This document shows, piece after piece, positions 33,697 to 47,075 of a DNA stretch of 64,000 bases. The notes beneath the pieces were generated by a model, which made no database searches, was not told the DNA's origin, and worked only from the letters and a program-made list of their open reading frames with translations. Numbering within the stretch: position 1 is the stretch's first letter; every line of letters begins with the position of its first letter. The stretch is from Nitrosopumilales archaeon (GTDB lineage: Archaea; Thermoproteota; Nitrososphaeria; Nitrososphaerales; Nitrososphaeraceae). Location of the stretch: the NCBI GenBank assembly GCA_044507735.1, contig JBIQJB010000003.1, positions 1-64,000 on the forward strand. Reading direction: 5' to 3'. Position numbers and translations under genes: made by a program.

Positions 33697-34176
33697 CTAG
33701 TGGACGAGAATCACAGGACAGGGCGAGTCCTCTGAAACTTTTCTGGCGACGCTTCCGATTGTCGCTATCTTGGCAATCCCCTGCAGCCCGGTTGTCCCCA
33801 TGACTACAAGATCGACCTTCTGATCTCGGATAAACTCCGTTATCTTGTCAGAGGGATATCCCACCAATAGTTTGGTCTCCATCGTAACCTTCTGCTTTGC
33901 ATACTTTTTCCTCTTCTGTTCAAGCATGTTGGACGCATCCTTTCTCATCTCGTAGTACAGTTCCTTCTCAAGTGTAGCTGCCGTGAGTCTCTCTCCCGTA
34001 GTCTTGGAATACCCATATTCAGTCATGACGGGAGGGATGACAATAACAGGCAATACGTGAAGAAGTATAATCTTGGCGCCAGATGCATTTGCAATCGGCA
34101 CTGCACGCTCTAATGCGCGGTCTGATGCACCGGATCCATCATGCGGAACCAGGATCTTTTTGTATGCCGTCGTCAT
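33697..34176 (-). CDS. Universal stress protein
   Basis: YKKILVPHDGS, DLVVMGTTG, IGSVARKV....CPVILVH. Confidence 0.93.
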   Translation of the reverse strand: MTTAYKKILVPHDGSGASDRALERAVPIANASGAKIILLHVLPVIVIPPVMTEYGYSKTTGERLTAATLEKELYYEMRKDASNMLEQKRKKYAKQKVTMETKLLVGYPSDKITEFIRDQKVDLVVMGTTGLQGIAKIATIGSVARKVSEDSPCPVILVH

Positions 34177-34216
34177 GATTCTTGTAACACACACTCCTAT
34201 TATTATTAATGTCTCC

Positions 34217-34675
34217 CTAGTGCACCAGCATTACGGGGCACGGAGCAATTTCAGACACTTTTCTTGCCACGCTTCCAAGTGCCCTGAGTTTGCCGGATTT
34301 CAAACTCCTGCTACCCATGATAATGATGTCGCATTTTGACTCCTTGGCCGCTGCGACAATTTCCTTGGCAGGAGATCCCACGCGGACCGCTATCTTGGAT
34401 TTTATCCCTTCCTCTTTTATCTTGGCCGCTGTCTTGTCCAGCATTGCCTTTGCTCCTTCCTCCAGCATGCCTCTCAGTTCGGCCTTTGCGTCTTTAAGCG
34501 ATCTCTTGCTACCGATAAAAGAGAGCAGGATGCTCGGAGGTGCATAGCGCTCATCTACAACATATACCAGCAAAAGTTCAGAGGCAAACATCTTGGCAAA
34601 CTTGATCGATTCATCTACGGCCTTCTCAGACATCTCGGAGCCGTCATGGGGAACGAGGATTGTCGAATACTTCAA
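34217..34675 (-). CDS. Universal stress protein (close paralog of 22398-22853)
   Basis: ILVPHDGSEMS, GSPAKEI, IIMGSR, LGSVARKV. Confidence 0.93.
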   Translation of the reverse strand: MKYSTILVPHDGSEMSEKAVDESIKFAKMFASELLLVYVVDERYAPPSILLSFIGSKRSLKDAKAELRGMLEEGAKAMLDKTAAKIKEEGIKSKIAVRVGSPAKEIVAAAKESKCDIIIMGSRSLKSGKLRALGSVARKVSEIAPCPVMLVH

Positions 34676-36365: not shown

Positions 36366-37142
36366 TTATATCTTGCACTCCAAACTTTCTGTTATGTCTT
36401 GCCTATCGACATAATTTGCGTTCAACGCTGCAATTTCGCAGATGCCAATGTCGCCGCCTATCTTATCATTGTGAATTACAATTCTTGGATACATTATGCT
36501 GTCTAACTTTGTGGAGTGGCCAAGACCAAGTGCGTGGCCAAGCTCATGAATCAATACAGGGACCAGAATCTTTTCTTCGTAAAGAGAATCGGTGTCATAG
36601 ACAACAATTGAAACGTGATCAAGTGATTTGTCAGGCAATACAGTCACGGTTGCGAGGGCAAACGGCCTGCCTCCGTTGATGCCCTCAGCCGCTTGTTGAC
36701 TGGCAAAAGAGACAACTATGTCTGTGTCACTGTCGGTATCGCCGCTGTCGTTTGGGATTACAAGACGTGTCGAGGAGCTGCCTGAGTTGTTTAGCATTGT
36801 ATCAAACACAATGTTCCAACCCGTGAGGTTGTAGCCCGTAATAGGGCCGTTGATTGCCTGGCGTGCTATTGCCCGGGTTTCTGAATCATACTTTAGATTG
36901 TCAAAGTGAAATGAAACTGTAACAATCTCCTTTTTCCATATGCCGTTGATGCGTATTTCATCTATCTTTTGTTCCTGGCCTGAACCGACTACTTTGCCGA
37001 TTGTGGAATTGACCATGTACTCTCTGATCTCGAATGTTTGAGGATTCCCCGAATTGGTTAGAAATGTGTTCGCAAAAGTCAGAGCTAGTCCGGAGGCTCC
37101 TAAAATTGCCACTATGGCACACATTGTCATATTTGCGCGCAA
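36366..37142 (-). CDS. Secreted matrixin-family (metzincin) metalloprotease
   Basis: HELGHALGLGHS zinc motif and SIMYP Met-turn; signal anchor. Confidence 0.88.
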   Translation of the reverse strand: MRANMTMCAIVAILGASGLALTFANTFLTNSGNPQTFEIREYMVNSTIGKVVGSGQEQKIDEIRINGIWKKEIVTVSFHFDNLKYDSETRAIARQAINGPITGYNLTGWNIVFDTMLNNSGSSSTRLVIPNDSGDTDSDTDIVVSFASQQAAEGINGGRPFALATVTVLPDKSLDHVSIVVYDTDSLYEEKILVPVLIHELGHALGLGHSTKLDSIMYPRIVIHNDKIGGDIGICEIAALNANYVDRQDITESLECKI

Positions 37143-37708
37143 TAGCCATGGTTATGGCTGATTACTGGCTAATAAGGTTTAGCTCTCTGTTTTTAGATAT
37201 CGTATGTAAATATTACTTAAAATTAGAATTATGTCACAATAGCCGGTATCGGGATTGCCTGCGTATGCTGGCGTTTCTTTGCATGCGTACGTAACACTTA
37301 CGCACTATCGGAAAGTGCCAGATCCTCGGGTGCTCGGTCCGAGGTTTGGACTTTAAGGTTGCAATGCAACTTTGCTCGCAATTTCCTTGACGAGGTCACA
37401 AAAATTGTGCCCGAGGCTTACGACATCAATTAGCATCTTTGCGGATCGAGTCTTTGTGGTAATATCTTCAGAAGTGCAGTAACACTCGTATTCATCTAGA
37501 GTTCTGCTCTGATCTCAGGAGTTATTTGTGCCCGCTTCATCGCTGGGCCCAACTGCTTCGATTCTAGAGTCAGAACTCAATTCGGAGTTTTGCTTCGAAA
37601 GATAGGGTTCCAAAATGACGCTGCATCACGAGAGTTCTTGCCGCTTCGCGGCTGCTAGAGTCTCTTTCAAGTTCTGTCGAATGGTCGGGATTTGTCGAAA
37701 TGCAGTTT

Positions 37709-38335
37709 TCAAATTGACTCATCTGCAAAACGGTGCTTGAAGAACTCCTGATGACCTGTACTTCTCTTATGTTCTTCAACATCATCTACAAAGACAAATG
37801 AAGCTGCGCATTTAGTGCAAATATGAAACGTGTCTATCACGTTTCGGAGGTCTTTTGCATTCTGTTGTATTTCTTTTATCTTTATTTCAGCGGCAGGTAG
37901 AGCTCTGAACCATAAAGTGTCAAACACATATTGCTGCTGTTCTATGATTTCCCTAACATTGCTATAGATTAGCTGCTGCACTGGCTGAGCTCTTTTCAGA
38001 TTAGCAGTAGCGACATATTCTTTTTCACTCACTCCAAAATTTCCTCTTACTCTGTCCATATGCCGAAGATCGCTGAACTTGAGCAATCTCTTACAATAGT
38101 CTAGGTTCGAGTCTGTGATTTCGGTTATGACTTTAGTCTTGACACCCCTATCTTTGGCATCATGAAGTACCTTGTTAAATTCTGGAACTTCAATCACTAC
38201 AGAAGGCCATGTCTGATCAACACTGATTTGTAGCTCCTTTTTTGTTTTAGATACAAAGTTAACAAGCACCGGGGTTATCAGCTCCGTGCCATGCAATACC
38301 TCAGTGAATTCTGGCTCTAGCCCGTTTGCTTCCAT
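37709..38335 (-). CDS. TrmB/PLD-like sensor-type domain with a C-terminal C2H2 zinc finger
   Basis: RGVKTKVITEIT..N...CK.L...LRH....GNF...QQQYVFDTLW, then CTKC...H....H. Confidence 0.7.
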   Translation of the reverse strand: MEANGLEPEFTEVLHGTELITPVLVNFVSKTKKELQISVDQTWPSVVIEVPEFNKVLHDAKDRGVKTKVITEITDSNLDYCKRLLKFSDLRHMDRVRGNFGVSEKEYVATANLKRAQPVQQLIYSNVREIIEQQQYVFDTLWFRALPAAEIKIKEIQQNAKDLRNVIDTFHICTKCAASFVFVDDVEEHKRSTGHQEFFKHRFADESI

Positions 38336-38522
38336 TACTGCACTCTCACACTTGGATTGTGTGATAATTACCGTTTTAAGTTTTGGTTATAGCCTTTGGA
38401 TAGCGCATTCCTACCATTGATCATCTTTATCCAGCAGCTATCTCTGCCATTCGCCAGCCAGTTAAAGCCCTGTACACTCAAAATATCATGGATTTCGCGC
38501 CATTCCTTCTTTTCTAGCCATG

Positions 38523-39130
38523 CTACGGCTTGACTTTGATGCAGCCATATCCATTGAATATCTGTACTTTATCGACTCTGATTCCTAACCCATTTCCGGT
38601 TGGTTCCTGAATATCTTTCACACAAACAGCCGCTTGTCTCATCAAACTTTCAACTTTGTTTTCACCCAGATTCAGGCTGATGACCACCGGTTGAGATGGT
38701 GTTTGTCCTATCGCTTGGTATACTCCTATGAAATTGTAGTGAATCCACATAGCATCAAGCAATTCCCGCGCGGCCTCTGCTACAGCGTTCAGTGGCGTGT
38801 AAACAGCATTTCGCTTAGCCACCAGTCCTCGATAATAATTAGAGATGGTCAACGGATATGTTCCTTCTGCCACAATATTCTCGAGATAGTGCTAATAGTG
38901 CTACCATCTCAAGATACATGCGACGAATAAATTGTCGTGAATTGGTTAATTGCAGTACCTTAGGCTTTGATGATTTCCTTGATCAGATTTACATCATATT
39001 TGACTTGGTACGCGTAGACATCCGGAACGCCTTCCATAATGCCCCTGTGACCATTGTGTCCACAAACATATCGAGGGCGCAAGCCTTCGGAAGCAATTCG
39101 TTGGTCAAGTTCTTCCACCATGCAAGTTCC
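38523..39130 (-). mobile_element. Decayed DDE transposase (IS6/IS1-like) remnant
   Basis: Fragments WIHYNFI...GQTP.....LNLGENK.ESL and QKEHIR across frames, with many stops. Confidence 0.55.
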
Positions 39131-39624
39131 ACGCATTCATCAAACCTTATTTTGATAGGCGAATGAATACCGATCTGTGATGCACCCCATACCACCATGT
39201 CCATGCTTTCGTATGTTTCATCTCTTTCATGAAGTTTCGTGCCTGTCAAGTAGAGTAAAATGTTATACTGCCTGAAACACTGTACAACAGTGTGAAGACT
39301 CGTGAGAAACCAAGATTTGTATGAAAACTCTACTGAGATTTTCAAGAATTATTTCATATATCATGCCACGCTAGAAGTGCCAAGGTTTCCAAGGTTTCGC
39401 AATTAAATAAAATGCGAAAGTACGAGCCTTTGCTTGATTCCTGTATCGTGCTCGGTCATAGCCGTTAAGAAGAAACGAAATACAACCCCTCTATTCCGAG
39501 TCATCATCTAATCCACTATTAGTATTTTTATTAGCATTCTTAGGGCATTTTGCTTGAATCTTACAAAAAGATTACTCTTACCTAATGCTTATAGGCAAAT
39601 TTCTGTTTAATGTAATCAATTACT

Positions 39625-42600
39625 ATGAGCCAACGAGCTGCAGCTGAGACCAGCAAGAGCGAACTGATCGAAGTATCCTACCTCGTTATAGATTCAAAAG
39701 ATAAGGATTCAATTGCAGAGACTCTTGAATCATTTGCCACATCTATAAATGTCCAGTACAAAGAGGACGGCAGTGAATTGCCGTATGTTCCTTTTCCTAA
39801 CTTTGAAAAGGCAAATGCAGCAACAAAGTTATTCCTGTACGGACCAAGTGGATGCGGCAAGTCAAAGACCATCTTTGAGATCATCAGACGTCGAATTCCG
39901 AATCTTTCAAGAATAATCGTAATCAACCCGAGGCAGATTGTCGGAGAACGGTCGGGCAGAATGAATCTTACAGAATTATTAAGATCGATCGATAAGGAAA
40001 AAGATGCGGTTGTGTGGGATAACTTCCCTGACGATCTAATCAAGCGCGATGTCAAAAGCGCACTTTATGTTCTTGAAATGATCAGTTCTTTGGAACTGAC
40101 TCATCTTCTCTTAGCTCTCAAACCAAAGTATCTTGAATTGTATAGTAACATTGTTCAGAACATTCCTGAATTTGAGGCGATCCAAATCGGATATGACCTT
40201 GGTACCTTTAGGAATATCTTTAGGTCGTTAGGACTTGAAAATAACCGATATGCAGATGCTTATTACAAGTATGTAAATAATGATCTTGAGCGGATTTCCA
40301 GAATTCTCTGGCAGAAGGAACCGCTTCCGCTTACCATTTTAGATTATTGCAGAGTTTTGGGTGCCTCCGGCTCAGATCAGTACAACGAAACCGCAATATC
40401 CTCGCATATTGGTATCTCGGTGGCTGAGAAGTTACCAAGGCGTACTGCTTACTACGAAGAACAGTTTAAGTTCATCAGTTTTTCGGATTCCAGACTGGCC
40501 AGCATCGAATTCTTGTACACTTTGAAGCTGTGCTACGATCTTGGATTAGCTAGATCGCCAGAAGCATTGGAGAAGTTGCAACAGGGCATTTTTCGTAGCA
40601 ACCCACCAAGAGAACCATTACGCGAGCTTGCCACTTGGCTATATCTCTCTGGTGTTCATTATTCAATGCACGACGTCTGCAAGGACGCCATAACAATTCC
40701 TGAAGATATAAAACTGAAGATTCTCAGATACTTGGTTGATAGCTTTGAAATTATTGTTCCAAGCGAGGAGAGTGTAATCTTTTCGTTTGGAATTTTCTTT
40801 GGCAGAAACATCCAATATGTGCCAAAGGACGCTTCCCAGCCATTTCTACCGGATAAGATTTATTCATACATGAAAAAGAAACGTAATTTTGAAACAGGAT
40901 TTGGGCTTGGGATTGCTGAGTCATTTCTTGGTCTTGATGAAAACCTCCAAAAGGAGATACTCAAGAGAGTGGAAGTAGATATAGAATTTGCTCGAGGATT
41001 AGCGGACGGACTCGGGCACAATTTCATTTCACTGGATCAATCTGCTCAGTATCAGATTCTAAACAGAATCACTTCAGGCTTGCCTTTTGCCAGGTTTTTT
41101 GGAGAGAGCTTGGGCCGCATGTTTGGACAGATGTCTGAAGATCTTCAGAATGAAATCTTTTCAAGAATTGAAGGCAATGTGCAATTCGCAGATGGCATAG
41201 GAATGGGTATAGGTTATGTTCTAAGCTCATTGCCACCTTCATTGCAAGAGTTAGTATTTGCAAGAGCTATCAAGAACAGCGAGTTTACAAGAGGATTGGG
41301 ATATGGAATCGCACGCAATTTCTCAAGCCTGTCAAACGAGCTTCAAGCGCAAATGTTTGAAAGAGCTGAGACAAATACTGAATTTGCAAAAGGATTGGGG
41401 ACAGGTTTTGGATTTGTATTTAAAGATCTGGATTCTTCATTTCAGCAAAATTTACTTGATCGGGCAGAGGCAAACAGCGAATTTGCATATGGATTGGGGA
41501 TATACCTAGGATTTACTTTCAGCTATCTCGGTGACGCACTCCGTGATAGCATATTTAAAACGATTAGTCACGACGGTGAGCTCTCATACGGTTTGGGCAT
41601 GGGACTGGGCTACACATTTTCATATCTAAGCGAGGAAAACCAAGCAAGGGTACTGAGCATAGCCCAAGTGAATGTAAAGTTCGCATATGGATTGGGATCC
41701 GGCTTTGGATTTACATATAAGCACATTCCACCAAAGAAGCAGTTCGAGCTTTTTGCTTTGGCTAACAGCAATGTAAAGTTCGCATATGGATTGGGTTTTG
41801 GACTAGGGTTTACATTTGCATACCTTGGGGAGGAATTACAGCGGAAAGCGTTTGAATGGATAGAGAAGAATGAAGAGCTGGCATTGGGACTGGGTTATGG
41901 TTTTGGCTTCACTCTCAAATTCTTGCCTGAAGATTTGCTCAACACCATTCTTCTGAAAGCTGCCTCAAACAGTGAATTTTCAGTTGGGCTAGGATTCGGC
42001 GCAGGTTACATATTTTCATATCTCGACGATGCTCTGCAGGAGACGGTTTTTGAGTGGGCTCGATCGAATAACAGGTTAGCAATCGGTCTTGGCATGGGTT
42101 TGGGTCGAATCTTTAGATATCTGCCCGAAGATGTGAAAGAGAACGTCATCTATCCGATGATAAAATCAGATTCGCAATTCTCTATTGGCCTGGGCTTCGG
42201 CATGGGATACATATTCACATACTCGGGCTCGACAGTTCAATCTGAAGCTTTCAAGTTTGCAGAGGAAAGCGCAGATTTCTCAAAAAGGACTTGGCGTCGG
42301 CCTTGGCTTTTCATACAAATATCTACCAGACGACATTATTCAGAAGCTCACCACCAAGTCAGAAACAAACTTGCAGCTTGGTTTGGGTCTTGCGCTCGGA
42401 ATAGGATATACAATTGCATATCTGGAGGTTGAAGAAGCACAGAAGATGTTTCGCAGAGCAGAGAAAAATGTCCCATATGCCATAGGTCTCGGCGATGGCA
42501 CAGGGAGATGCTTCAGGTACCTGAATGATAAACTGAAAAAACAAGTTCTCGATATGGTTTCTAAACTCGAGGGTTTTGCGCGTGGATTTGGCACTGGCAT

Positions 42601-43633
42601 GGGATATGTTTTCAATTATCAAGAATCCGACACTAGGACCATGGTAACCACACTCTCCGAAAAGAACCCTCAATTTGCAATTGGGCTTGGCTCGGGTCTT
42701 GGACACACACTACAATTCATGAGCACGGAGGCAAGAGACGAAATCATTGCAATGGCTAATAGAAACAAGTATTTGGCACGCGGACTTGGAGAAGGAATCG
42801 GTCAGTGTATTCAATACATATCGGCGGCCCTGCAAGAACAAGTGCTAAGTACGACATTCCAAAACCCGGATTTTACAAGGGGGCTGGGCACAGGTCTGGG
42901 CCTTACAATGTTTTCCAAGCAGTCAGAGATGAAATCAGAATTGCTGCAAAGGGCACGTAATGATATTCACTTGGCGACGGGAATTGGGATAGGGTTGGGA
43001 TATATTTTCGCATACACCTCGTCTGATGATCAAGATATTGTCGTCAAGATGGCAAATGAGAACAGCTCTGTGAGTTATGGGATCGGAATTGGCATTGGCC
43101 ATGTCCTTACATCCCAGACAATTCGAGCGAATCTGTCAAAGTTCAGGTCGTTGGCAAATATCAACAAGAATTTTGCAAGCGGGCTGGGGCTGGGATTTGG
43201 AAATAACTTTTTCTCTTTTGATGAAAACTCGCAGGAAGAGATTCTAGGAATGCTTCAGAACAATAAGGATTTTTCTAGCTCTTTTGGACTGGGCTTGGGC
43301 AAAGCTTTTGCCGGCCTTGACAACCTTATGCATAAAGAACTCCTCGAAATCGCCGTCACTAGAAGCTACCCGGGTTTTGGCGAGGGATTAGGAAGGGGAC
43401 TAGGCAGCAATTACTCTTCTCTGCCGGAAGATCTCCAATGCGAAATACTCGACATTGTAGAGTCTGAGACAAGAAGTATCTCTAATTTACATGAATCTGA
43501 ATTTGTGGAGGGACTTGGGCTAGCTCTTGGACAAAGTTTCAAATATCTCAACCCAGGGATTCAGGCCCAGATCAACGACTTAGCGCAGAGAAATGCAATT
43601 TTCGCTTCCAGCCTAAAGCTGCCCTGTAATTAG
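39625..43633 (+). CDS. Large P-loop NTPase with about 27 33-aa Gly-rich helical repeats; split by one extra A at 42282-42286
   Basis: GPSGCGKS Walker A, VVWD Walker B-like; repeat FAxGLGxGLGxxFxYL continues in register across ORFs 39625-42432 and 42185-43633. Confidence 0.8.
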
Positions 43634-43704
43634 CTACAATGTACACACGAACTTATTATCTTCTTGTGTTCTACGTATAAGCCTCGAATGGGTCGAAGAT
43701 CCTC

Positions 43705-44466
43705 TTGACAGCAGCAAACGATCCTACGTATTACTTGACTGTGCTAGACGATTTTCCGGTCATGAGTCAAGATTCCGCGTTCTCATTATCTTCGAACATT
43801 TCGTTTGAGGAGGTGCTGTTTCGCGGCCAGCGCGGCAGATTCTGTGTATGTTTCGTAGATATGGCAGACTCAACTGTGGTCACCTCAGGCTTGAGCGACG
43901 TTCAAATGGGCAAGTACTATTCCATCTTCCTAAATTCCCTCGCAACTATTGCAACAAACTTTGGTTCAAGAATTATCAAAAATGCTGGAGATTGTCTAAT
44001 CTGCTATTTTCCGGATACTAGCGATCCTTCAAATTTGCTCTCGTTACAAAATACTCTTGACTGTTTTATGACTATGATTGATGCACGGAAGTTCATGAAT
44101 TCCTTGTTGAAGTCAGAGGGATTGCCACCTGTAAATTCCAGGATAAGCGCAGATTACGGAGAAGTGGAAATTGCTCAATCGGTGACATCTAGGAATGACG
44201 ACCTTTTTGGCTCCACTATGAACTTGTGCGCGAAGATTAATTCCAAGGCGACCTTAAACGGTCTGGCTATTGGAAGCAATCTGTTCAAGGCGCTCAATAT
44301 GCATCAATCATTGATGCAAGATTACAGATTCGAAAATACTGGCAGTTATGCGATTGGAGGCAAGGAAAACTACTCGGTCTACACGGCTTTTAGCCTCAAG
44401 ACTAGGAGCACGATTAACCCTCTCAAGAGGACCGGTGCAATCAGGCCTCCCAATAACAAGGATTGA
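43705..44466 (+). CDS. Class III adenylate/guanylate cyclase domain protein
   Basis: FVDMADST, IIKNAGD, ISADYGEV and DLFGSTMNLCAKIN motifs. Confidence 0.88.
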   Translation: MTAANDPTYYLTVLDDFPVMSQDSAFSLSSNISFEEVLFRGQRGRFCVCFVDMADSTVVTSGLSDVQMGKYYSIFLNSLATIATNFGSRIIKNAGDCLICYFPDTSDPSNLLSLQNTLDCFMTMIDARKFMNSLLKSEGLPPVNSRISADYGEVEIAQSVTSRNDDLFGSTMNLCAKINSKATLNGLAIGSNLFKALNMHQSLMQDYRFENTGSYAIGGKENYSVYTAFSLKTRSTINPLKRTGAIRPPNNKD

Positions 44467-44539
44467 GACTACTACCATTTGATCTAGCATGAAGATATTG
44501 CTGAAAGGCGACCCTTAACCAGTAAAAATGAAAAGGTAT

Positions 44540-46297
44540 CTACCAATAATTTGCCTTGATCTTTTCAATCACTTTTTCATAGTCTGGACCCTTTCGTCTT
44601 GCGTAATTCTCCATGGCCACCAGAGGTATACCACCGAGTGACCTTGCTAGACCTGCGAAGAAAAAATTCACGATACTGCTATTTCGACCGACCTTGTGCA
44701 TGAATTTCTTTATTCCATGTTTATAGTTATGCTGCCAAGTCTTGTAAATTACGCCAAACTGTTCTGGCTTCATGGAACGGCCAACATCGTAAAAGTCGGA
44801 TTTCTCCAAGAGGCCGATCGGAACGAATGTCAATGGCGCCACTGCAAACTTGGAATCAATCTGTTCAGATTCTAGCTCGTGTATCAAATTGATCGTTTCC
44901 CAGCTGTCATCAGGTGTTTCGTCGTTATCAAGTCCCATAATTAGACTGAAGGCCGGGATCCAGTAATTTTCGTTGAGGACCTTCACGCCCTGTTTGACGA
45001 CCCAGTGCCACTCGTCTGGTCTGAAGGGAGTCAGCTTACGGTCAGCGTACTTTTGAATTAGCCTTTTGCTTCCAGTCTCAAGTCCGCATTGAATACCAAT
45101 AAAATTTCTTGGTCCAGAGTGTATTATTTTGGAAATATTGGGAATCAACTTCTCATCAGCAATGGCCCCTGATAAAGTCCCATGCGTAGGATTTGTGTGC
45201 TCGATTCCTGTTGCCATGACACCCTTGAAGAGCTCTTCAATTGCCTCTCTGTTTGGCTGCATGTTCTTTGTTTTTCTGGGATTCATGCCGTAGACAAATA
45301 TGTCATCACTTTGCAGCCATGCGTTCTTTAGCCCTCCGTACTTCATGTTCACTTCAATTTCCTTCTGCACCTTCTCTACCGGATAGTAGCGCAGTGGCCT
45401 CAAAGTCACGTCGCAGAACTTGCACCCCCTTCCGCAGCCGCGCATGACTTCTATCATGCCGTGCATGCTTGGGTTGACGATGTTTGGAATCTCATCGATG
45501 GATGGCTCGTTCCAGTAGTGGATGAACCTGCCATGGAGCGTCCTGTTGTTCCTGATGAACTCTTTAATCTCTACCTTGAACTGGCTCTTCTTGAACGGGT
45601 TGGCCATGTCAAACTCTCCGGCAATGAGGGCGTCAAAGAACGCACCTGCTGCTCCGTCTATCTCCGGGCCAATGCCTCCAAGCTCGCCTTCCAAGATGCC
45701 AAACAGGTCGTATTCCTCGATCTTGGCTGGGTCATAGTTGTACTGCCAAGTGCCCGATCCCCCGACTACAATCTTTGCGTCATTCCCAATCCGCGATTTG
45801 GCGGCAATGATCCGCTCATGCAAACGTCTGCTACATGATTCAGTATAGGATGTAAGTTGGCGACCATACGTAAAAGTCATGGTGACTGGCCCCATACCAA
45901 GTGGATCCATCTCGTAAATTCCTATCACCTCTGTTTCTGAAGTGACAAATTGATCAACGTAATCGGGATTGACAACTGCTATGTCATCCGTTGAATAGCC
46001 GGATTGTAGCAAAGATGATTCTAGTTTCCTGAGACCATAGGGTGCATATCTCGCCAGACCGTTTGTTTGTTCTCCAGAATTACAAAGGAAATCAAACAAT
46101 ATCCTCGGTGTGACCTGGTTTCGAAATAAACTACGCGAAAGCGTTCTGTTTCCCAATACGCAGGACCAAAAAGAATTCTGATTTGAGAAATTGCTAGACT
46201 CCATTGCAGGGAAGCAACCAAGAAACGAAGCAAGTGAAACCCCTCTGTAAGGCGACATCAATGTGCGGTCTGCTGTCAAAATTATTCTTGGCCGCAA
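44540..46297 (-). CDS. B12-binding radical SAM protein, GDGT ring synthase (Grs)-like
   Basis: CGRGCKFC; N-terminal IILTADR, APYGLRKLE and DPLGMGP recall the Grs family as remembered. Confidence 0.75.
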   Translation of the reverse strand: MRPRIILTADRTLMSPYRGVSLASFLGCFPAMESSNFSNQNSFWSCVLGNRTLSRSLFRNQVTPRILFDFLCNSGEQTNGLARYAPYGLRKLESSLLQSGYSTDDIAVVNPDYVDQFVTSETEVIGIYEMDPLGMGPVTMTFTYGRQLTSYTESCSRRLHERIIAAKSRIGNDAKIVVGGSGTWQYNYDPAKIEEYDLFGILEGELGGIGPEIDGAAGAFFDALIAGEFDMANPFKKSQFKVEIKEFIRNNRTLHGRFIHYWNEPSIDEIPNIVNPSMHGMIEVMRGCGRGCKFCDVTLRPLRYYPVEKVQKEIEVNMKYGGLKNAWLQSDDIFVYGMNPRKTKNMQPNREAIEELFKGVMATGIEHTNPTHGTLSGAIADEKLIPNISKIIHSGPRNFIGIQCGLETGSKRLIQKYADRKLTPFRPDEWHWVVKQGVKVLNENYWIPAFSLIMGLDNDETPDDSWETINLIHELESEQIDSKFAVAPLTFVPIGLLEKSDFYDVGRSMKPEQFGVIYKTWQHNYKHGIKKFMHKVGRNSSIVNFFFAGLARSLGGIPLVAMENYARRKGPDYEKVIEKIKANYW

Positions 46298-47001
46298 TCT
46301 TCTCAGTTCTTGAGATTAGAGAACATCAAAGTTTCATTTAAGGATTGTAAGAAATACTACTATTACAATAGCGTGTATTTTTACGTTTCAGTGAGATATG
46401 TCAAGAAAAGATATCCGATATGGAATTTTGACGTGTATTCTGATTTTGTGACCTAGACATAGTTCTCAAATTCAACCGGCAAAGGGTGCCGAAATCGGAA
46501 ACGACATCATCTTACGATCCGACAACTATGAAATTTCAAATCTTCTCTGTCCTTGAAGCCCTTTCGTTGGTCATTTTTCTGTCTTGTGGGAGTCCCCGGG
46601 TTACCCCCTCATCTTCAGATCAGACATTTCATACGGCAGATCGGGTGGTTTGGCATTGGTTCTGATTGTAGCGTCGAATATCTCAGGGCATAACTATCGC
46701 AGCGTTCCGTAGGAAACGCTTTCCATTTCTGGCAATCCGGTTGGATCCTGTCTTCCTTACTCCACAAACGTCCCGCAGAGCTCTTCCATCGGCGGGCCCA
46801 CCATACCAATTTTAGAGAAAAAAATACCACAAGTATGTAGAATATCACTCACGTGTAACGGGTGATGTGTAGGGCATACAGAAACATCACAGATGGGTTC
46901 ACAGGTCACCGCATTTCTGCAGCTCTTCTTCCTGGATTGATATTATTTCGAATTCTCATCTTTTCATTGACGAAACCCACAGTTATGCAATTCTAAAATA
47001 G

Positions 47002-47075
47002 TGGGCCCAAGGGGGTTTGAACCCCTGGCCGACCGGTTATGAGCCGGTCGCTCTGCCAGGCTGAGCTATGGGCCC
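47002..47075 (-). tRNA. tRNA-Ile(CAT) (Ile2)
   Basis: GGGCCCA acceptor stem, ACCGG-CT-CAT-AA-CCGGT, GGTTCAAAC; the GGGCCC stem favours Ile2 over Met. Confidence 0.88.

Follow-up and report, generated by a model that had tools for sequence, protein, structure and literature searches.

A predicted STAND-type sensor with glycine-rich 33-residue repeats and a linked class III nucleotidyl cyclase in the Nitrososphaeraceae

Results and Discussion

A sensor gene and a cyclase gene at one locus

The stretch of DNA analyzed here, referred to from this point on as the window, comprises 64,000 nucleotides of a Nitrosopumilales archaeon that is placed in the Nitrososphaeraceae (assembly GCA_044507735.1, contig JBIQJB010000003.1, positions 1 to 64,000 of the forward strand). 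Between positions 39,625 and 44,466 it carries two co-oriented genes. The first encodes a long protein with an N-terminal nucleoside triphosphatase (NTPase) module and a C-terminal array of 33-residue repeats, which we will call the sensor, and the second encodes a class III nucleotidyl cyclase. The link between sensor and cyclase is firmly supported by homologous loci, as described below. We interpret the pair as a lineage-specific switch of the STAND type (signal transduction ATPases with numerous domains), akin to those receptors that join a nucleotide-binding domain to leucine-rich repeats (NLRs), with the cyclase as its output. With slightly better than even confidence, we place this switch in conflict or surveillance somewhat sooner than in routine signalling.

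An earlier note on this DNA, made from the letters alone, had proposed a sensor of about 1335 amino acids once a single base was corrected, and reading through the break bears this out. The sensor is spread over two open reading frames (ORFs) of the plus strand, ORF1 (39625-42432, 935 aa) and ORF2 (42185-43633, 482 aa, in the +1 frame), which are a single gene split by one surplus A in a run of five at 42282-42286, where the sequence reads 'TTCTCAAAAAGG'. The repeat pattern is lost in ORF1 at '...ADFSK' and is resumed in ORF2 at '...KGLGVGLG...', the two frames join within the A-run, and the read-through product, with an X at the break, is exactly 1335 aa long. The cyclase ORF starts 71 nt past the ORF2 stop, in the same frame as ORF1, and the spacer between them contains stops in all three frames. 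A D-[DE]-F-P motif lies near the N-terminus of split cyclases and recurs in the linker where relatives are fused. Since the split relatives begin upstream of this motif, the cyclase probably starts at the TTG at 43705. Coordinates are collected in Table 1.

Table 1. Coordinates of the two genes, of other features in the window, and of cyclase-receiver combinations in relatives
Feature	Position	Strand	Remarks
Sensor gene, 5' part, frame 0	39625..42286	+	NTPase module (aa 1-440) and first ~14 33-aa repeats; ends at the A-run
A-run, five A, one surplus base, +1 frame shift	42282..42286	+	One letter fewer in X10 and X15 contigs
Sensor gene, 3' part, frame +1	42287..43633	+	Final ~13 repeats and stop codon
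Class III nucleotidyl cyclase, 253 aa, probable TTG start	43705..44466	+	D52, K92, D96, D166, N173, K177
Decayed paralogous NTPase-module fragment	38855..39085	-	34% identity to sensor aa 164-234, 2 stops, profile E 4e-11
Radical-SAM protein, 585 aa, weakly B12-binding-like	44540-46297	-	Convergent with the cyclase
tRNA-Met	47001-47075	-	2.5 kb from the locus
Cyclase and receiver in relatives	L038:7685-8899 (split); L040:7601-8797 (fused); P0104 (fused)

The frameshift was checked by aligning contigs from four public sequencing runs (X1, X10, X14 and X15) to the locus. The X1 contig (Logan, word depth 22.5) shows the same five-A form as the window; since X1 is a possible source sample of the assembly, this agreement is not independent. 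Runs X10 and X15 belong to two further studies, and most of their pieces match at 99% or more. In each, one contig lacks exactly one letter at 42282, so that the 1335-aa frame is whole again; the X14 contigs leave the site uncovered. Among 24 sequencing runs, no RNA run carrying the locus was listed. A contig ends or starts at 42283-42306 in both X10 and X15; the assembly graph may branch here, although contigs cannot demonstrate this. The sensor gene is thus intact in the near-identical populations X10 and X15; the extra A of the window arose very recently by mutation, or else the homopolymer was misread. Because of this insertion, the sensor encoded by the present assembly is probably inactive or truncated. 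Programmed frameshifting or recoding at the A-run was considered and rejected, as the near-identical strains merely have one A fewer.

These observations bear on a first alternative, namely that the locus is a decaying remnant in which the sensor is a pseudogene and the module is idle in the present strain, whatever the family does elsewhere. The non-independent recurrence of the +1 frameshift in the X1 contig, the decayed paralogous fragment just upstream, the stop-bearing fragments in other genomes and the frameshifted relatives L044 and L045 are all consistent with decay. The damage, however, amounts to a single one-base change, the two halves run on as open frames of 885 and 450 codons in which no repeat is damaged, and the cyclase retains all of its catalytic residues. 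The intact, near-identical DNA of X10 and X15 further implies that any decay is very recent or that the change is a homopolymer read artefact, so we regard the remnant explanation as rather unlikely.

The NTPase module

The earlier note had reported a P-loop (GPSGCGKS) and a VVWDN motif, and both fall in columns that are invariant or nearly so across 15 relatives (alignment A1). The Walker A motif occupies residues 73-80, with G73, G76, G78 and K79 invariant, and the VVWDN of the Walker B motif (VVWDNFPDD in full) occupies residues 129-133, with W131 and D132 invariant. The same alignment of N-terminal modules displays 'WDNFP' at Walker B, an 'EPxPLT' motif at residues 231-236 and a 'YSMHD' motif in which H349 is invariant and D350 nearly invariant. 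An AlphaFold2 model built on A1 (mean predicted local distance difference test score, pLDDT, 88.3; predicted template-modelling score, pTM, 0.84) lays the module out as an alpha/beta domain (approximately residues 60-190), a helical domain (192-285), a winged helix (288-355) and a second helical domain. The winged helix contains a beta-hairpin at residues 340-347, and the S-M-H-D residues follow straight after it; in our reading, they correspond to the MHD-type motif of winged helices.

A Foldseek search of the module model against the PDB returned 202 matches at E<=1e-3. The top matches are SAMD9, NLRP proteins, WRR4A, Apaf-1, CED-4 and the EfAvs5 SIR2-STAND protein, all with a probability of 1.00. 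For WRR4A, a plant TIR-NLR, the query template-modelling score (TMq) is 0.42, with a root-mean-square deviation (rmsd) of 6.5 over 376 columns. The matches also include a maltose-system regulator (entry 8bob_C, E 1.7e-4, likewise with a probability of 1.00), which we take to be MalT, as well as Orc1/Cdc6, ClpA, Hsp104 and RFC-type clamp-loader subunits. In the protein atlas, the nearest clusters to the module carry nSTAND3, NB-ARC, NACHT or NPHP3_N domains, with scores of 0.92-0.94. Curated models are less informative. The window's sensor has no significant match to any Pfam, NCBIfam or PADLOC model, and among the 15 members Pfam matches are sub-threshold and at the level of the P-loop (AAA_16 in seven, nSTAND5 in four, nSTAND3 in three, NB-ARC in three and nSTAND6 in two). 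The sole PADLOC match is to mad8 (E 0.0046), and a profile of the module finds only P-loop-level matches among PDB sequences, at E>0.01.

In another account, the NTPase would be some other AAA+ or ORC-like ATPase, or a scaffold, with the repeats as a HEAT-like platform and a link to the cyclase that reflects co-assembly and not regulated activation. ClpA, Hsp104, ORC/Cdc6 and RFC-type subunits do reach Foldseek scores similar to those of NLRs, the Pfam matches are all below threshold, and the nearest structures to the repeat model are scaffold HEAT proteins (such as PP2A PR65 and importins). We nevertheless consider a non-STAND NTPase improbable, given a winged helix that follows a helical domain and ends in an invariant, MHD-like His, a C-terminal repeat array combined with swappable effector domains, and atlas neighbours that are nSTAND3, NB-ARC and NACHT clusters. 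We therefore read the sensor NTPase as a new, divergent STAND family, to which the predicted fold, the winged helix with its MHD-like His, the repeat array and the swapping of effectors all appear to fit; the STAND- or NLR-like character suggested by the earlier note is upheld by the predicted fold and the motifs.

The repeat array

Repeat anchors recur every 33 residues, occasionally every 31-34, from approximately residue 425 to residue 1328, which gives about 27 units, the number and length that had been reported from inspection of the sequence. When the two halves of the array are aligned they show 31% identity over 442 aa (E 3.6e-57). Tandem Repeats Finder, run on the DNA, detects no repeat; the copies are old at the DNA level. 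An AlphaFold2 model of 458 aa of repeats (A2) is entirely helical (pLDDT 89.1). In each unit, a helix of 13 residues (FAxGLGxGLGxxF) leads through a short turn into a second helix of 11-13 residues. Foldseek finds no PDB match to this model at E<=1e-3, the best being PP2A PR65 (E 2.7e-3, TMq 0.26), with importins also near. No Pfam repeat family (HEAT, ARM, TPR and others) matches the window's sensor at E<=0.1, the protein atlas offers no lead for the repeats (score 0.76), and a protein search with the repeats alone returns four matches, all apparently pieces of the same sensor family.

The repeats thus model as a two-helix alpha-solenoid that is weakly HEAT-like and lies outside the recognised families. 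The earlier note had set the repeat apart from TPR, ankyrin and HEAT; this stands insofar as no Pfam repeat family is matched, but the unit is probably not a new fold, as it models as a two-helix solenoid whose nearest, though weak, matches are HEAT proteins. Like the HEAT solenoids of PP2A PR65 and the importin-beta family, the model stacks two-helix hairpins into a long superstructure. It differs in its period (33 aa, versus about 39 for HEAT), in the G-x-G-x-G-x-G signature of its first helix, and in the weakness of the structural matches (E 2.7e-3 at best, TMq <=0.26). The alternating glycines would permit very tight packing of the first helices of adjacent units. A membrane role for these glycine-rich helices was rejected, as they are only about 13 residues long and are packed in a soluble solenoid in the model.

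The cyclase

The downstream gene had been described as a class III cyclase with both metal-binding Asp residues and a Lys/Asp pair, and all of these assignments are confirmed. The protein matches PF00211 with 34.5 bits (gathering score 21.9; E 2e-8), and its matches among PDB sequences include CyaB (3r5g, E 1.1e-5) and Cya2 (2w01, E 1.4e-5). The metal-binding residues D52 and D96 align with their Asp counterparts in CyaB and Cya2; both are invariant in 12 relatives (alignment A4), as is N173. Also invariant in the 12 are K92 and D166, placed by the CyaB alignment, which we take to be the canonical Lys/Asp pair that specifies the substrate. From this pair, the predicted substrate is ATP and the predicted product cyclic AMP (cAMP). 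Class III cyclases work as head-to-tail dimers. Because one chain holds all of the catalytic residues, this cyclase would be expected to act as a homodimer with two sites.

The cyclase also matches eight PADLOC models of PycC, the cyclase of Pycsar defence (best E 1.8e-10), which raises the alternative that it makes cCMP or cUMP for an effector encoded elsewhere. These PADLOC models come without a cut-off, however, and matches to them would be expected of a generic class III cyclase. The adjacent cyclic nucleotide monophosphate (cNMP)-binding effector that defines such systems was not found, nor was the cNMP-binding domain PF00027 in the 97%-complete genome, and to our knowledge Pycsar cyclases are not coupled to STAND proteins. 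A Pycsar identity was rejected because neither that effector nor PF00027 was found, and a Pycsar-type role appears very improbable.

Coupling of sensor and cyclase in relatives

Among 98 homologues of ORF1, 20 bear a C-terminal fused domain that is 42-51% identical to the window's cyclase. Fifteen loci were taken from 29 matching places by choosing the longer open frames, which leaves aside short fragments and places in G077, G031, G102, G091 and G080. In many relatives, sensor and cyclase form a single polypeptide of about 1600 aa; the window's genus encodes the cyclase separately, in the next gene downstream. The split form occurs in 5 of the 15 loci, each with a sensor ORF of 1279-1333 aa and, after it in the same orientation, a cyclase ORF of its own; three of the five belong to the window's genus. 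Four loci have the fused form (1619-1732 aa, one interrupted by a contig end), and two more (L044 and L045) are fused yet frameshifted, each gene being broken into two pieces (425+1455 aa and 827+972 aa). Frame breaks in so long a repeat gene hence recur from one assembly to another. One locus (L039, G039:C10:281000-294000) has a convergent cyclase 1.5 kb from the sensor, and the remaining three have none. At L039, an MFS transporter gene separates sensor and cyclase, and upstream of the sensor there is a gene for a patatin-like phospholipase.

The cyclase is therefore fused or adjacent to the sensor in 12 of the 15 loci. The earlier note had paired the two genes and had named as one counter-case that homologues are never linked to cyclases; the 20 fusions among 98 homologues and these 12 loci contradict that counter-case. 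A tree of 15 NTPase modules has an unresolved backbone (6 of 12 inner branches are open), such that the number of fusion or fission events cannot be inferred from it. When the sensor's final 249 aa (A3) were paired with the cyclase (A4) in a complex prediction, the score was 0.20 against a mark of 0.32, a value that is uninformative either way.

Exchange of effector domains, distribution and divergence

In relatives whose NTPase modules and repeats are homologous, the N-terminal domain is a caspase (P0067), SIR2 (P0205) or methyltransferase (P0214), the SIR2 domain of P0205 matching ThsA-type models. These architectures support an NLR-like exchange of effector domains within the sensor family. 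Some other relatives carry TPRs. Extensions of 180-490 aa with no Pfam match precede the NTPase module in P0197, P0202, P0235, P0148 and P0187, and may be further effector domains.

The module is almost confined to the Nitrososphaeraceae, is patchy there and is often broken. Within the family, 23 of 121 genomes and 6 of 18 genera carry it, a tally that includes the unpublished genome G077. Across the class, 11 of 301 genomes have it; its own family contributes 9 of 38, the sister family 1 of 181 and 13 other families none. Protein clusters yield 200 module matches at E<=1e-3 among 1.84 billion representatives. Source names of the homologues point to the Nitrososphaeraceae, and module fragments with stops occur in seven genomes. 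The genes that flank the relatives' copies vary, and include ABC1 kinase, radical SAM, NUDIX, insertion sequence (IS) transposase and patatin genes. In G070 (L034), the downstream radical-SAM protein is 77% identical to that of the window, whereas sensor and cyclase are only about 50% identical, which suggests that the sensor-cyclase module diverges faster than its syntenic neighbour.

Surroundings of the locus

The locus was said to lie in AT-rich DNA, and it does so moderately, with a G+C content of 43.3% versus 48.7% for the window, the 17th lowest among 237 sliding windows. Positions 37000-44500 form the part of the window lowest in G+C, with 41.9% in the 4.8-kb stretch from 37001 (mean 48.5%). 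The pair had further been placed between an IS remnant and a tRNA. The tRNA-Met is present, but 2.5 kb away and beyond the radical-SAM gene, and a transposase domain was found neither upstream of the sensor gene nor near positions 38421-38640. The latter interval is a stretch of which 100-220 bases are repeated at two other places in the same genome (C17 and C18) with 73-81% identity, and which may be a small mobile or repeated element. The decayed NTPase fragment is oriented opposite to the sensor gene and lies approximately 540 nt upstream of it.

The genes nearest to the locus are the radical-SAM gene, ORFs without assignment and a metalloprotease gene, and the neighbourhood has an archaeal character, with genes for family B DNA polymerase, PAC2, Usp and Nuo subunits; two Usp genes lie at 33697-34675. 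A radical-SAM paralogue (31% identical) lies directly upstream of the sensor and in the same orientation in L035 and L036, both from the window's genus. In the same two loci, a NUDIX hydrolase gene follows just downstream of the cyclase, again in the same orientation (L035:8629-9318, plus strand; L036:3912-4460, minus strand); its product could act on nucleotides, or its position could be mere synteny. A scan of the locus with bacterial-type promoter and terminator models, which are not applicable to archaea, gave results at the level of shuffled sequence.

Proposed mechanism and role

In the mechanism that we propose, a ligand, most likely a protein, would bind the repeat solenoid of the sensor, upon which the NTPase module would exchange nucleotide and oligomerise. 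Oligomerisation would gather the cyclase domains, whether fused or separately encoded, into head-to-tail dimers, and these would synthesise a cyclic nucleotide, predicted from the Lys/Asp pair to be cAMP. The domain architecture, the conserved catalytic motifs and the genetic coupling are observed; ligand binding, NTP-dependent oligomerisation, cyclase dimerisation and cNMP synthesis are inferred. As for its purpose, surveillance or conflict of an immune-like kind seems somewhat more likely than routine physiological signalling, on account of the swapping of the cyclase with caspase and SIR2 effectors and, in addition, of the patchiness, decay and fast divergence of the family. Mutual displacement of caspase domains and cNMP cyclase domains in NTP-dependent conflict systems is described by Kaur et al. 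(2020; PMC7159879).

Several findings weigh against a STAND switch with a cyclase output in conflict. Walker B has one Asp followed by Asn instead of the usual acidic pair; TMq values to solved STAND structures are 0.24-0.42, with AAA+ unfoldases and ORC comparable; and the NB-ARC, NACHT, nSTAND1-6 and AAA_16 models stay under their cut-offs in all 15 members. The position of the transition-state Arg in the cyclase is Lys177 in 21 of 21 aligned family sequences and in 12 of 12 in A4, and this makes both cyclase activity and product uncertain. The cyclase lies beyond about 900 aa of repeats, so that induced proximity would be less direct than with an N-terminal effector. L038, L040 and P0104 have a response-regulator receiver domain after the cyclase, as in ordinary two-component signalling. 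Domain and PADLOC scans found neither an adjacent effector gene nor a known defence gene flanking the locus, PF00027 was not found in the genome, and the sensor gene is frameshifted in the present assembly.

Some of these points are shared by another account, in which the same device has a physiological role, the STAND switch sensing a metabolite or the state of the cell, like MalT, and setting cAMP levels. Mycobacteria have cyclase-STAND fusions that act as regulators. The window's own genome (G000) has five class III cyclase domains (C39, C17, C32, C3 and C10), and the four besides the locus copy indicate that cNMP signalling is in general use. The receiver fused after the cyclase, the lack of an adjacent effector or flanking defence gene in those scans, and a Lys/Asp pair suggestive of plain cAMP would likewise suit such a role, and a comparative genomics study (PMC13577086) lists class III adenylate cyclases in clusters typical of the Nitrososphaeraceae. 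A routine function is harder to reconcile with presence in only 23 of 121 family genomes, with frequent broken copies, with divergence that is fast relative to the syntenic radical-SAM neighbour, with IS elements beside some copies, and with sister architectures that bear caspase and SIR2, typical suicide or defence outputs. We consider the physiological role possible but doubtful.

The surveillance reading can also be carried further. The proteins might be archaeal innate-immune receptors specific to soil ammonia oxidisers, in which the solenoid recognises proteins of viruses or mobile elements and the oligomerised cyclase turns the cellular ATP pool into cyclic nucleotide, with no separate effector. 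Such an abortive response would act by nucleotide depletion, and the cyclase would then be the counterpart of the NAD-depleting SIR2 and of the caspase on the same chassis. This bolder proposal has, in our judgement, only a slim chance of being correct.

Comparison with known systems

With the antiviral STAND NTPases and NLR-related proteins of bacteria (Avs and bacterial NACHT, or bNACHT) and with the eukaryotic NLRs, Apaf-1 and CED-4, the sensor family shares a tripartite nucleotide-binding oligomerisation module, as judged by predicted fold. As in these proteins, there is a long C-terminal repeat sensor, SIR2 and caspase effectors are swapped in sister proteins, and the distribution is patchy with frequent loss. 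The differences are that no Avs, bNACHT, NB-ARC or NACHT model scores above its cut-off on the sensor family, and that the sensor is a new 33-aa glycine-rich repeat and not TPR, LRR or WD40. Moreover, the cyclase effector comes after the sensor, either as a C-terminal domain or as a separate gene, and the host is an archaeon.

Mycobacterial regulators of the Rv0386 type combine a cyclase, an NB-ARC ATPase, TPRs and a LuxR helix-turn-helix. They resemble the present family in uniting a class III cyclase, a STAND ATPase and helical repeats within one protein. Compared by architecture only, they differ in that the cyclase is N-terminal, a DNA-binding domain is C-terminal and the repeats are TPRs. 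STAND regulators of the MalT type have the same order of NTPase module, helical sensor and C-terminal output; the output of MalT, however, is DNA-binding, it senses a small metabolite, and no sequence similarity to it was seen above threshold. Pycsar offers a class III-type cyclase, and the window's cyclase matches the PycC models. The locus departs from Pycsar in having no adjacent cNMP-binding effector, in a cyclase that is fused to, or controlled by, a STAND sensor, and in a Lys/Asp pair that predicts a purine substrate.

STAND proteins with diverse effectors are known, as are cyclase-STAND fusions in mycobacteria. What is new is an NTPase module named by no curated library (Pfam, NCBIfam or PADLOC), a sensor repeat without a close structural match, the placement of the cyclase after the sensor or its split into a gene of its own, and the restriction to soil ammonia-oxidising archaea. 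A literature search returned no description of the sensor family; the supplements of PMC13577086, PMC13581612 and PMC7159879, which lay outside that search, might list it. The main text of PMC13581612 mentions neither 'cyclase' nor 'Nitroso', and 'Thaumarchaeota' does not occur in PMC7159879.

Conclusion

Soil ammonia-oxidising archaea drive nitrification, and their sensing of threats and use of cyclic nucleotides are almost uncharted. The family described here mounts several outputs on one chassis, namely cyclase, cyclase with receiver, caspase, SIR2 and methyltransferase. Its natural split and fused forms, together with the intact and frameshifted alleles of near-identical strains, provide ready-made experimental controls. 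If the sensor is an immune receptor, NLR-like immunity with a second-messenger output would extend to the Nitrososphaeraceae; if it is instead a physiological switch, it would offer a rare handle on cAMP signalling in archaea without the classical cNMP-binding domain.

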